Part shown: positions 26,881 to 29,428 of the stretch, one piece after another | Layout of the letters: each line of letters opens with the position of its first letter | Numbering within the stretch: position 1 is the first letter of the stretch | Source of the DNA: a bacterium | Lineage (GTDB): Bacteria > Patescibacteriota > Minisyncoccia > UBA6257 > UBA9933 | Assembly: GCA_021796335.1 (NCBI GenBank) | Contig: JAJYHZ010000001.1 | Span: 144,360 to 208,359 of the forward strand | Length of the DNA stretch: 64,000 nucleotides | Direction of reading: 5' to 3' | Program-made: the position numbers and the translations under genes | The notes under the pieces: generated by a model | The model's database searches: none | What the model saw: the letters and a program-made list of their open reading frames with translations, nothing else | Told to the model about the DNA's origin: nothing

Positions 26881-27087
26881 ATGGGAGTTGAAGCCTCAAA
26901 ACTCGGCAAGAATTTAAAGCGTATCAGAATCGCAAAGGGCATAACACAAGGCGATATCGTCCGCAAACTCGGCGTGGGGCGAGGATTTATAAGCAACATC
27001 GAGAACGGTAAAGCTAACCCGACGCTCACAACAATTACAAAACTAGCAAAGGCGCTCGGTGTTCCTACGGATGAACTCTTAAAATAA
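26881..27087 (+). CDS. XRE-family helix-turn-helix transcriptional regulator
   Basis: LKRIRIAKGITQGDIVRKLGVGRGFISNIENGKANPTLTTITKLAKALGV is a classic HTH_XRE; divergent from recombinase A. Confidence 0.85.
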   Translation: MGVEASKLGKNLKRIRIAKGITQGDIVRKLGVGRGFISNIENGKANPTLTTITKLAKALGVPTDELLK

Positions 27088-27089
27088 TC

Positions 27090-28268
27090 ATGGCGAACAG
27101 CAATCTCACTAACGCGAAAAGGACAAAGAACGACGAGTTTTATACTCAGTACGACGATATTCAAAAAGAAATTGAGGCGTATTTGGAATACGACCCCGAT
27201 GTATTTCGCGGCAAAGTAGTGTATTGCAATTGCGACGATCCATTCGAGAGCAATTTCTTTCGCTATTTCGCGCTCAATTTCAACAAGCTCGGATTGAAAC
27301 AGCTTATCACCACGAGCTACAAACCCTCGCCCGTAGCCAACACGCAATTGGGATTGTTCGGCAATGATAAAACACTCACGAAATCAAAAGGCCGTCCCAA
27401 GATAACTGCCAACAAATTTATTATCAATGAAGTGCGCGACATAGACGACGATGGCGAGTTCAGCTTGATGGATGTTGCCAAGCGGTTAAAGACGAATAAA
27501 CACAACGAATGGACACCGCTAGAAGGCGACGGCGACTTCCGTAGCGATGAATCTATAAATCTGCTGAAACAATCCGACATCGTAGTAACAAATCCTCCAT
27601 TCAGTTTATTTCGCCAGTATATAAAACAACTCGTTGATTATGATAAAAAGTTTTTAATCATCGGCAACATAAACGCGATCACCTACAAAGAAGTATTCCC
27701 ATTGCTTAAAGGGAATAAGGTTTGGCTCGGCGAAAGTATCCATAGCGGCGATCGAGAATTTATAGTTCCACATTATATTTTCAAGGAAATCGGTAATTGG
27801 CGAACTGATGAAAATGGCGTTCATTACGCACGGGTTATGGGCGTTCGTTGGTTTACAAACCTAGACCATGGGAGACGGCACAAATCGTTACCGCTAATGA
27901 CGAAAGCAGAAATTATAAAATTCAGCACCAAAAAACCATTCGAGAGATATAATAACTATGATGCTATCGACGTGCCACTAGTAAAACATATTCCTAATGA
28001 TTATGAAGGCGTAATGGGCGTGCCAATCAGTTTTTTGGATAAATATAATCCTGACCAGTTTGAAATCGTTGGAATGTGTGAAAACGAAGACCTGTATAAA
28101 ATGAAAACGAGAATATATACAAGCGCAGAATGCAAACAAGCCTATTTAGATAAGTTTGGGAAAAAAGGAACCTATGATTTAAATGCAAGCGGAGTGGTTA
28201 TTAAGGACGGCCTACTAGAGAAGGTTTACCAAAGAATACTAATTAGACATAAGAAAAAAATAAAATGA
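27090..28268 (+). CDS. DNA methyltransferase, amino-MTase class (N6-adenine or N4-cytosine), NPPF catalytic motif
   Basis: DIVVTNPPFSLF (motif IV) and an N-terminal DEFYTQ segment; start 3 nt after the XRE stop. Confidence 0.7.
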   Translation: MANSNLTNAKRTKNDEFYTQYDDIQKEIEAYLEYDPDVFRGKVVYCNCDDPFESNFFRYFALNFNKLGLKQLITTSYKPSPVANTQLGLFGNDKTLTKSKGRPKITANKFIINEVRDIDDDGEFSLMDVAKRLKTNKHNEWTPLEGDGDFRSDESINLLKQSDIVVTNPPFSLFRQYIKQLVDYDKKFLIIGNINAITYKEVFPLLKGNKVWLGESIHSGDREFIVPHYIFKEIGNWRTDENGVHYARVMGVRWFTNLDHGRRHKSLPLMTKAEIIKFSTKKPFERYNNYDAIDVPLVKHIPNDYEGVMGVPISFLDKYNPDQFEIVGMCENEDLYKMKTRIYTSAECKQAYLDKFGKKGTYDLNASGVVIKDGLLEKVYQRILIRHKKKIK

Positions 28269-29428
28269 AAACAATCTTAAAAACGGACATCACCGTAAAA
28301 GATATTTGCGAAGGGTTCGTCTATAACGAACTGGAAGGCAAAGGGCTATTCGGCTTGTCCGGCAAGCTCATCATTCAGCCACCGTACCAGCGTAATTTTA
28401 TCTATGCCGAAGCAGGAAAAGAAGCAGCGGTGATTGAATCGATACTAAAAGAATACCCAATAGGCTTGATCTATTTTAATAAAGTTGGTAAGGACAAGTT
28501 TGAAGTTTTGGATGGACAGCAGCGTATCACTAGCATTGGGCGATTTATCGCCGGTAAGTTTGCCATCCAAGACGAAAATGGCATGCCCCAAAATTTTAGC
28601 GGATTGGCACGAGAAAAACGAGCAAAAATTGAGAATACGAAGCTAACCATTTATGAATGTGAAGGCGAGGAAACCGACATCATGAATTGGTTTGAAACTA
28701 TCAATATTGTAGGTATTCCACTCAATGACCAAGAGAAAAGTAATGCCGTGTATTATGGCCCGTTTGTAACGCTTGCGAAGGAAGAGTTCAGTAATAATCA
28801 AAATTCCAATATTCAGAAATGGAACGCATATATAAAAGGTAGCGCTAATCGCCAAGATTTTTTGCATGCCGCACTAGATTGGGTGAGTAGGGGCAATATT
28901 CGAGAATACATGAGTAAGCATCGCAAAGACGAGAATATTAAAGAATTAAAAACCTATTTCAACAGCGTAATTGACTGGGTTTCCAATGTGTTTACCGATG
29001 TGGAAAACGAGATGCGCGGACTGGAGTGGGGCCGACTGTATGAGACATACCACAAAAAATCTTACGACCCTAAGAAGATATCGGCCGAAGTACACAAGCT
29101 CTATGCCGATTCGTATATCAAAAATCGCAAAGGTATTTTTGAGTATATCCTCGGCGGCTCTACTGATACCAAACTACTAGAAGTGCGAGTGTTTGACGAT
29201 GCGACCAAGAAAGCGACCTACGCAACACAGACAGCTTTGGCAGAAAAGAAACATATTTCAAACTGCCCACTATGCGCCGTTGGACGCGATGCCAACAAGG
29301 ACAGAATATGGAAACTGGACGAAATGGATGCTGACCATGTGGCGGCATGGAGCAAGGGCGGTAAAACATCGGCCAAGAATTGCCAGATGTTGTGCAAGAC
29401 TCACAACCGAGCAAAAGGAAATAGATAA
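28265..29428 (+). CDS. DUF262 (ParB/GmrS-like, DGQQR motif) protein with a C-terminal HNH nuclease domain
   Basis: QPPYQRNFIY and LDGQQRITSIGRF at the N-terminus; C-terminal CPLC...DHVAAWSKGG...CKTHNRAKGN HNH motif; overlaps the MTase stop (atga). Confidence 0.7.
   Translation: MKTILKTDITVKDICEGFVYNELEGKGLFGLSGKLIIQPPYQRNFIYAEAGKEAAVIESILKEYPIGLIYFNKVGKDKFEVLDGQQRITSIGRFIAGKFAIQDENGMPQNFSGLAREKRAKIENTKLTIYECEGEETDIMNWFETINIVGIPLNDQEKSNAVYYGPFVTLAKEEFSNNQNSNIQKWNAYIKGSANRQDFLHAALDWVSRGNIREYMSKHRKDENIKELKTYFNSVIDWVSNVFTDVENEMRGLEWGRLYETYHKKSYDPKKISAEVHKLYADSYIKNRKGIFEYILGGSTDTKLLEVRVFDDATKKATYATQTALAEKKHISNCPLCAVGRDANKDRIWKLDEMDADHVAAWSKGGKTSAKNCQMLCKTHNRAKGNR

Follow-up and report, generated by a model that had tools for sequence, protein, structure and literature searches.

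A predicted restriction–modification operon with an EcoRI-family methylase and a DUF262–HNH nuclease, carried by a serine-integrase element of a Patescibacteriota genome

The window analyzed here is a 64,000-nucleotide stretch of contig JAJYHZ010000001.1 from a Patescibacteriota genome (assembly GCA_021796335.1), in which three consecutive genes, referred to as C, M and R, encode a small helix-turn-helix (HTH) protein, a predicted N6-adenine DNA methyltransferase of the EcoRI family and a nuclease that combines a GmrS-type DUF262 domain with an HNH domain. It is likely that these genes form a classical Type II restriction–modification (R-M) operon, with the order C-M-R, which is carried as cargo by a serine-integrase element, referred to as element A. 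The structure of the genes, their family memberships, the conserved linkage of M and R and the boundaries of the element are directly established by this analysis. The gene combination is common and is not a new defense architecture; the family is very widespread and is computationally recognized, and it is biochemically unstudied.

Layout of the operon

The three genes are consecutive open reading frames (ORFs) of the plus strand, having in the ORF list exactly the limits (Table 1) given in a preliminary description of this DNA. The C and M genes are 2 nt apart, and the stop codon of M overlaps with the start codon of R in the sequence ATGA. All three ORFs are intact and of full length, none being truncated when compared with its homologues, and the E-values of their domain matches are far beyond chance. 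The preliminary description had assigned the three products as an XRE regulator, an amino-DNA methyltransferase and a DUF262+HNH nuclease, and each of these assignments is upheld by the Pfam profiles. On the 3' side of R there are two hairpins, which are possibly the end of the transcript; folding of the RNA of positions 29425–29520 gives −28.2 kcal/mol (z = −2.2), and no T-run is present.

The methylase

M matches the complete Pfam EcoRI_methylase profile (PF13651, positions 1–345 of 345) with an E-value of 1.5e-128 and a score of 429 bits, the cut-off being 26.4, and it matches the PADLOC profile MTase_II with an E-value of 1.2e-105. The NPPF motif is found within DIVVTNPPFSLF (DIVVTNPPF). 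The family is one of DNA N6-adenine methylases, and not of the RNA methyltransferases that the preliminary description had considered as a possible alternative. When compared with M.EcoRI (plasmid pMB5823_5), with which it shares 47% identity over 326 residues (E 1e-90), M has in addition an insertion of about 70 residues and a hypervariable C-terminal tail of about 65 residues. It is possible, given this identity, that the recognition sequence of M is GAATTC-like. The identity with M.EcoRI is too low for transferring the GAATTC specificity to M; in the Nanomotif MTase-Linker pipeline, such a transfer needs 80% identity (bioRxiv 10.1101/2024.04.29.591623).

The nuclease

In R, the Pfam searches identify GmrSD_N (DUF262) at residues 35–163 (1.2e-19) and HNH (PF01844) at residues 349–387 (1.1e-6), whereas no match to DUF1524 (PF07510) is found at E ≤ 0.01. 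DUF262 and HNH are thus both supported by the profile search that the preliminary description had proposed as a check, and so is its suggestion that an HNH domain, located at the C terminus, takes the place of DUF1524. The three GmrS-domain motifs (QR, DGQQR and FxxxN) and the D-H-N-N nuclease motif, as listed by Machnicka et al. 2015 (PMC4619093), are all present, together with a CxxC...CxxxC zinc site. The DGQQR motif covers residues 83–87, and the HNH residues are D357, H358, N372 and N381. In an alignment of 93 family members, having 32–84% identity, these HNH residues and the cysteines of the zinc site are invariant or nearly so. The residues Q42, R43, D83, G84, R87, E157, W238, R308, F310, C334 and H358 are invariant in this alignment, and Q85, Q86, F143, N147, C337, D357, N372 and C377 are kept in at least 90% of the sequences.

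The AlphaFold model of R, calculated with this diverse alignment, has a pLDDT of 94.3 and a pTM of 0.82, whereas the model calculated from close homologues alone was poor (pLDDT 64). When the model is compared with the Protein Data Bank (PDB) by Foldseek, there is no significant whole-protein match, and the matches at the level of domains are weak, being with ParB CTPase domains, BrxU, Noc, the Gme HNH nickase, McrA and SspE. Sequence searches of the PDB with R and with M give no meaningful match; a weak match of R (about 0.005) to poxvirus F1L in these searches was dismissed as chance. As modeled, R is a ParB/Srx-like domain combined with an HNH domain, without a solved close relative.

The family of R is large. 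A word-indexed search of clusters at 90% identity finds at least 8000 related proteins, of which the 120th best has 77% identity with R, and an exhaustive search of 50%-identity representatives finds 4942, including 427 with E ≤ 1e-30. Nearly all full-length relatives have 360–420 residues, and in contigs of one genome per species a relative of R is encoded by 502 of the 555 pattern matches. Relatives are found in Patescibacteria, Gammaproteobacteria, Bacteroidota, Omnitrophota, Chloroflexota and other phyla; the nearest one (96% identity) is from Parcubacteria bacterium 21-54-25, and the family is about 80% identical across phyla. This nearest relative, together with those of the recombinase and of the repeats described below, points to a host that is probably a member of the Patescibacteria/candidate phyla radiation. 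The combination of DUF262 and HNH had been thought unusual in the preliminary description, but the same architecture is extremely common, and in PADLOC the family is listed among the Type II restriction endonucleases (REase). NCBIfam has no curated model for either M or R.

Linkage of M and R in related loci

The linkage of the two genes was studied in 86 related loci, which were searched by tblastn with the C, M and R proteins of the window. In 75 of these loci, an EcoRI-family methylase gene precedes R on the same strand. For seven of the 11 exceptions, the sequence available upstream of R is shorter than 1.2 kb, and when considering only the informative loci, having at least 1.2 kb of sequence there, the linkage is observed in 75 of 79 loci (95%). 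The genes are directly adjacent or overlapping in about 52 of the 75 pairs. The pair is present on plasmids of Moraxella and Enterococcus, and is annotated on plasmids of Arthrobacter, Pediococcus and Rhodococcus; it is also present in the Flavobacterium phage laban6-1, in an integrative element (R 63% identical) and a prophage (R 37% identical) of Escherichia coli and in a Mu-like phage contig (R 33% identical). Such a persistent linkage to one methylase family, together with the translational coupling, is as predicted for a cognate R-M pair. The R-M-like triplet of the preliminary description, and the methylation-guarded nuclease that it gave as one option, are in agreement with the domain assignments and with this linkage.

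The other option given there was that of a modification-dependent enzyme with an orphan methylase. R would then be a Type IV nuclease like GmrSD, and M would be either unrelated to it or a self-marking enzyme whose mark is not read by R. The N-terminal domain of R does belong to the GmrSD_N family, with its QR, DGQQR and FxxxN motifs, the weak structural matches include BrxU and SspE, and in some sources homologues of R carry the automatic name '5-methylcytosine-specific restriction endonuclease McrA'. However, these two structural matches fall short of significance (E about 0.09 to 2), and R lacks DUF1524, the nuclease domain by which GmrSD is defined. The score of R with the PADLOC REase_II profile PDLC03418 is 275 bits (2.4e-82; residues 5–386 on positions 4–371 of 372), as compared with 30 bits or less for the GmrSD-like PADLOC candidate profiles HEC-05 and HEC-06. 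The synteny of M and R, with overlapping stop and start codons, is strict across phyla and down to 33% identity, whereas there is no reason for a modification-dependent enzyme to stay with a single methylase family, and such an enzyme, if it read the mark of that family, would be suicidal. With the pair being retained in nearly all informative loci, it is very unlikely that R is a Type IV enzyme next to an orphan methylase.

The site between M and R behaves as an insertion hotspot. The genes found inserted at this position encode RhuM-like, T5orf172-like (200 residues), Fic, AAA-ATPase, Dam methylase and ParB-like proteins (examples are listed in Table 1). A RhuM-like gene often directly precedes R. 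In locus L049 (positions 6321–8172), which is an element at a tRNA-Ser, the genes of a 424-residue AAA-ATPase and a 190-residue protein follow C-M-R, and a nearly identical pair is located upstream of R in locus L037; this looks like a second two-gene defense module travelling with the R-M family.

The identity between loci is higher for R than for M in 95% of 2556 locus pairs, with means of 80% and 63%, respectively. This is largely because of two hypervariable segments of M (residues 221–240 and the C-terminal 65 residues). The stronger conservation of R was considered as evidence against a matched pair and was set aside, because these stretches mostly account for the excess.

The small HTH protein

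C is recognized by the Pfam profile HTH_3 (1.4e-17) and by the PADLOC profiles HTH_VI (1.9e-14) and Control_protein (2.6e-11), and its best natural sequence relatives in the PDB are C.BclI and C.AhdI, closely followed by HipB and phage repressors. A C gene is present in about six of 76 M-bearing loci, being the window and the five loci L008, L014, L020, L049 and L059, and in each of these five the C homologue is directly upstream of M. Two palindromes, AGTATTA-N10-TAATACT and ACAAG-N7-CTTGT, are located between a TATAAT box and the start codon of C, and we infer that these are candidate operators; in a promoter scan of this upstream region only weak consensus matches are found. Two palindromes, of a different sequence, are also present upstream of the C gene of L049, which encodes the closest homologue of C. 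On balance, the evidence leans toward C being the controller of the R-M system.

An XRE protein at this position could also be the mobile element's own repressor of the divergent integrase, or an antitoxin-like regulator, rather than an R-M controller. C and the recombinase share a divergent promoter region of 58 bp, the C gene is absent from most M-R loci, and the best NCBIfam matches of C, which are below threshold, are with HipB-, RstR- and TrbA-type regulators. Nevertheless, small HTH homologues are found immediately on the 5' side of M in L008, L014, L020 and L059 with no recombinase adjacent to C-M, and in L049 an att repeat of 280 bp lies between C and the recombinase. C is thereby associated with the R-M genes and not with the integrase. 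The Control_protein match, and the position of C.BclI and C.AhdI as the top natural PDB matches, also argue against C being a repressor of the element, which we regard as unlikely.

Proposed mode of action

In the proposed Type II system, M, being an EcoRI-family enzyme of the gamma class, would methylate adenine at N6 within a short specific site of the host DNA, and R would cleave the DNA that lacks this mark, using the zinc-bound HNH active site with its D-H-N-N residues. The GmrS-type DUF262 domain of R probably binds nucleotide and/or DNA and may gate the nuclease, presumably through NTP binding. C would bind the palindromes of the 58-bp promoter region, thereby timing or limiting the expression, and M and R would be translationally coupled via the ATGA overlap. 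For the element, the operon could serve as a defense against phages and plasmids and also as an addiction module by which the element is stabilized.

Several observations weigh against this assignment as a classical Type II system. All well-studied DUF262 nucleases (GmrSD, BrxU and SspE) sense modified DNA (PMC10952713), and no paper was found in which a DUF262–HNH enzyme paired with an EcoRI-family methylase is characterized. The 'Type II REase' call rests on the label of the PADLOC library and on the gene context, and the REBASE enzyme behind PDLC03418 was not found in the literature. About 23 of the 75 M-R loci hold 0.4–4 kb of other genes between M and R, an arrangement that would not normally be expected of tightly coupled genes. 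The window shows no depletion of GAATTC (20 sites observed, 21 to 33 expected), CAATTG or AATT; for a recently acquired island, such a site-avoidance check is uninformative on the target. Concerning C, its scores with HipB- and phage-repressor-type proteins are almost as good, a conserved C-box was not found when the six C-bearing loci were compared, and the presence of C, M and R in one operon differs from the usual layout.

The window also has strong tetranucleotide biases. Strong depletion is seen for GTAC (51 observed, 218 expected), CTAG (46 and 218) and ACGT (71 and 218) and for several hexamers in which these occur, and AATT is enriched (982 and 603). These biases may reflect other restriction systems or a general compositional bias.

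The carrier element

Element A is a serine-integrase element of 9.2 kb (25362–34576), which is inserted at the 3' end of a tRNA-Asn gene. Its integrase is a large serine recombinase, with partial, sub-threshold matches to the NCBIfam models CcrB and XisF. The recombinase ORF crosses the attachment (att) core into the antisense strand of the tRNA, and its likely start, as judged by comparison with the recombinase of L049, is MANYFLYARKST. No relatives of this integrase were found in viral contigs. Between about 25 and 35 kb, the GC content is higher than on either flank.

The element contains two pairs of inverted repeats, X and Y, and the core GAGCA is found at three sites, these being the tRNA/X site (25357–25361), the inverted Y/X site (29630–29634) and the Y/recB site (34577–34581), where recB is the recombinase gene of the neighboring element. 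The arms of X (116 nt, 25357–25472 and 29519–29634) are 100% complementary and bracket the recombinase and the C-M-R operon, whereas the arms of Y (289 nt, 98.6% identical by blastn) bracket the second half. The internal attachment site, which has the dyad AGATG-AG-CATCT around its core, is the junction expected from excision between the two outer sites, but it is inverted. The suggestion in the preliminary description of a mobile, possibly invertible, cassette is borne out by the integrase element and by the perfect 116-nt inverted repeats on both sides of the operon. The excised circle of such an element would carry two inverted, att-bearing repeats. It was also considered that inversion acts as an on/off switch for gene expression, and this was rejected, because flipping either of the repeat-flanked halves changes no junction and breaks no ORF.

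This geometry is preserved in other loci. The Saccharibacteria contig L050 has the same order of R, rc(X), rc(Y) (rc, reverse complement), Replic_Relax and Y, in homologous sequence of 83–90% identity (86–90% for the internal copy that follows R). The same layout, in unrelated sequence, is seen in L049, where C-M-R is in the other half, where attL and an internal attP are present and where attR is followed by what looks like the tRNA's own terminator, and the abutting double-repeat layout is also found, again in unrelated sequence, in L011. In this family of elements, the inverted attachment-region copy has a length of 100–400 bp, is mostly 99–100% identical to the split outer copy and separates the half with the integrase from that with the cargo; the R-M operon can be in either half. 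The predicted junction between tRNA-Asn and a recB-type gene end occurs alone in the metagenome contig L094, which indicates that element A entered between the tRNA and a recB-type element that was already there.

An assembly artifact could in principle generate such inverted repeats, in which case the operon would not be on an invertible or mobile cassette. Metagenome assemblers can make fold-back joins at repeats, and two related contigs, L020 and L041, end in inverted repeats that have exactly the k-mer length of the assembler. The 116-nt repeat, however, is shorter than common final k-mers, and the repeats stop exactly at the 5-nt core that they have in common and that lies at the tRNA 3' end. 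The same repeat order in the independent Saccharibacteria contig, the double-repeat layout shared by L049 and L011 despite their unrelated sequences, and the predicted tRNA-Asn/recB-type junction in another metagenome also speak against an artifact, which is extremely unlikely.

Table 1. Features of element A and its surroundings in the window, and positions of selected features in related loci
Feature	Position	Strand	Basis
tRNA-Asn (GTT), integration target, last bases in crossover core	25287–25360	+	ARAGORN, sequence
Large serine recombinase (recA-type), integrase of element A	25298–26821	−	Pfam Resolvase, Recombinase, Zn_ribbon_recom
Inverted repeat X, left arm (attL side), core GAGCA at 25357–25361	25357–25472		Repeat search, blastn
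Divergent intergenic region (recombinase start/C gene), candidate operators	26822–26880		TATAAT-like boxes and two palindromes
C gene, 68-residue XRE/HTH_3 protein, probable R-M controller	26881–27087	+	Pfam, PADLOC, PDB sequence matches
M gene, 392-residue predicted N6-adenine DNA methyltransferase, EcoRI family	27090–28268	+	Pfam, PADLOC, identity to M.EcoRI
R gene, 387-residue nuclease with GmrS-type DUF262, helical middle domain and zinc-bound HNH	28265–29428	+	Pfam, PADLOC, AlphaFold model
Two hairpins 3' of R, possible transcript end	29436–29510	+	RNA fold, weak, without T-run
Internal inverted attachment-region copy: rc(X) 29519–29634, core TGCTC 29630–29634, rc(Y) 29630–29918, dyad AGATG-CT-CATCT	29519–29918		Repeat search
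Second half of element A: 202-residue hypothetical protein, SDH-type ClpP-like protease, small membrane proteins, Replic_Relax	29971–34208	−	ORFs, Pfam
Inverted repeat Y, right arm (attR side), core GAGCA 34577–34581, right end of element A	34294–34581		Repeat search, blastn
Second large serine recombinase, recB, of the neighboring low-GC element, 3' end crosses core into Y	34487–36277	−	Pfam Resolvase 3.8e-22
Examples of M-R inserts in related loci	L001 5389–5991; L017 3388–4999; L027 746–4976; L016 2870–5004; L077 1337–4923		
Attachment-region copies in related loci	L049 1736–1842/3316–3593/8527–8704; L011 5–101/2978–3123/6473–6525; L050 1344–1755/5673–5951		

Other genes of the element and its surroundings

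The second half of element A has Pfam matches to SDH_protease (2.8e-13) and Replic_Relax (1.2e-23) and no PADLOC matches. It includes an overlapping gene pair on the minus strand (29971–31595), encoding a 202-residue protein without family match and a 341-residue SDH-type ClpP-like serine protease; neither is recognized by PADLOC, and the pair could be another accessory or defense module. The recB gene heads a long low-GC stretch (35000–53000), with a GC content of 0.21–0.35 as compared with 0.36–0.43 on the left flank, and this stretch is probably another element integrated at the same tRNA-Asn. Within it, several direct repeats of 38–52 nt (87–92% identical) at 46419–47295 lie inside an ORF of 867 residues (44778–47381), which indicates a repeat-domain protein. 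Just upstream of the tRNA-Asn, on the minus strand, there is an ORF of 238 residues (24462–25178) with a match to the Pfam Proteasome-subunit profile (9e-8), being proteasome-beta-like.

In contig L094, two tRNA-Asn halves (387–426 and 656–695), 93–98% identical to the tRNA of the window, are about 230 nt apart, and ARAGORN makes no call. This suggests an intron or an insertion in the anticodon region. A small GIY-YIG-like ORF is located just upstream of these halves (154–402).

Significance

The family of R is among the most abundant families of R-M nucleases in uncultivated bacteria, and no solved structure, published biochemistry or recognition site was found for it; the M-R pair is especially common in bacteria of the candidate phyla radiation. 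One characterized member would annotate thousands of genes. The sensor domain of the family is one that Type IV enzymes have as well, and a characterized member would also show how a GmrS-type domain works where methylation protects the DNA instead of provoking its cleavage. The inverted copy of the attachment site, kept by the carrier element, is a small separate puzzle of serine-integrase biology.

A bolder proposal, which we make tentatively and hold to be somewhat less than even in probability, is that R is a GmrS-type nucleotide-gated HNH nuclease with a polarity opposite to that of its Type IV relatives. The ParB/Srx-like domain would then license cleavage when the m6A mark of the partner is absent, and the M-R pair would be an evolutionary bridge between classical R-M systems and GmrSD, BrxU and SspE. 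The carrier belongs to a class of serine-integrase elements that target tRNA genes and keep two inverted attachment regions, a class that has apparently not been described before.

Comparison with known systems

The carrier resembles the elements of other large serine recombinases, the closest NCBIfam models being CcrB and XisF, in having an integrase with Resolvase, Recombinase and Zn-ribbon domains, short-core att sites with a dyad and site-specific insertion. Unlike typical serine-integrase elements, element A has a second, intact and inverted attP region, and its integrase ORF runs across the att core. In this, the layout is reminiscent of the yeast 2-micron plasmid, where inverted repeats contain the site of recombination.

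Like the C-regulated Type II systems of C.AhdI, C.BclI and C.Esp1396I, the operon has a small single-domain HTH_3 protein at its head, with palindromes just upstream. The gene order differs, being C-M-R here, whereas in the known C-regulated systems C and R are together and M is transcribed separately. With the EcoRI system, the operon shares a methylase that matches PF13651 over its full length and has the same NPPF motif, at the sequence identity given above, and the arrangement as a two-gene module with a nuclease. The nucleases themselves are unrelated, since R.EcoRI is a PD-(D/E)XK enzyme and R is built from DUF262 and HNH; on the EcoRI plasmid R comes before M, and in the window M comes first. 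The M-R layout is the same as in loci for which NCBI names a 'DUF262 domain-containing protein' or 'HNH endonuclease family protein' beside an 'adenine-specific methyltransferase EcoRI family protein'. The annotated homologues of Moraxella, Enterococcus, Pediococcus, Arthrobacter, E. coli and the Flavobacterium phage have 56–72% identity with R; what sets the window copy apart from these loci is the added C gene and the location in a serine-integrase element of a candidate-phyla-radiation-type genome.

When R is compared with GmrSD, BrxU and SspE, the ParB/Srx-like DUF262 domain with QR, DGQQR and FxxxN, the helical linkers and the C-terminal His-Me finger nuclease are shared, and this analogy suggests that R may follow the same overall logic, in which a nucleotide-binding sensor gates a beta-beta-alpha-metal nuclease. 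The nuclease domain of R is a canonical HNH domain (PF01844) with a zinc site and not DUF1524, and its chain has about 390 residues, as compared with 560–770 residues for the chains of BrxU and SspE. R is also unlike these enzymes in its linkage to a methylase of the cognate type in 95% of the informative loci, and its polarity would be the opposite one, with the mark protecting the DNA rather than provoking its cleavage.

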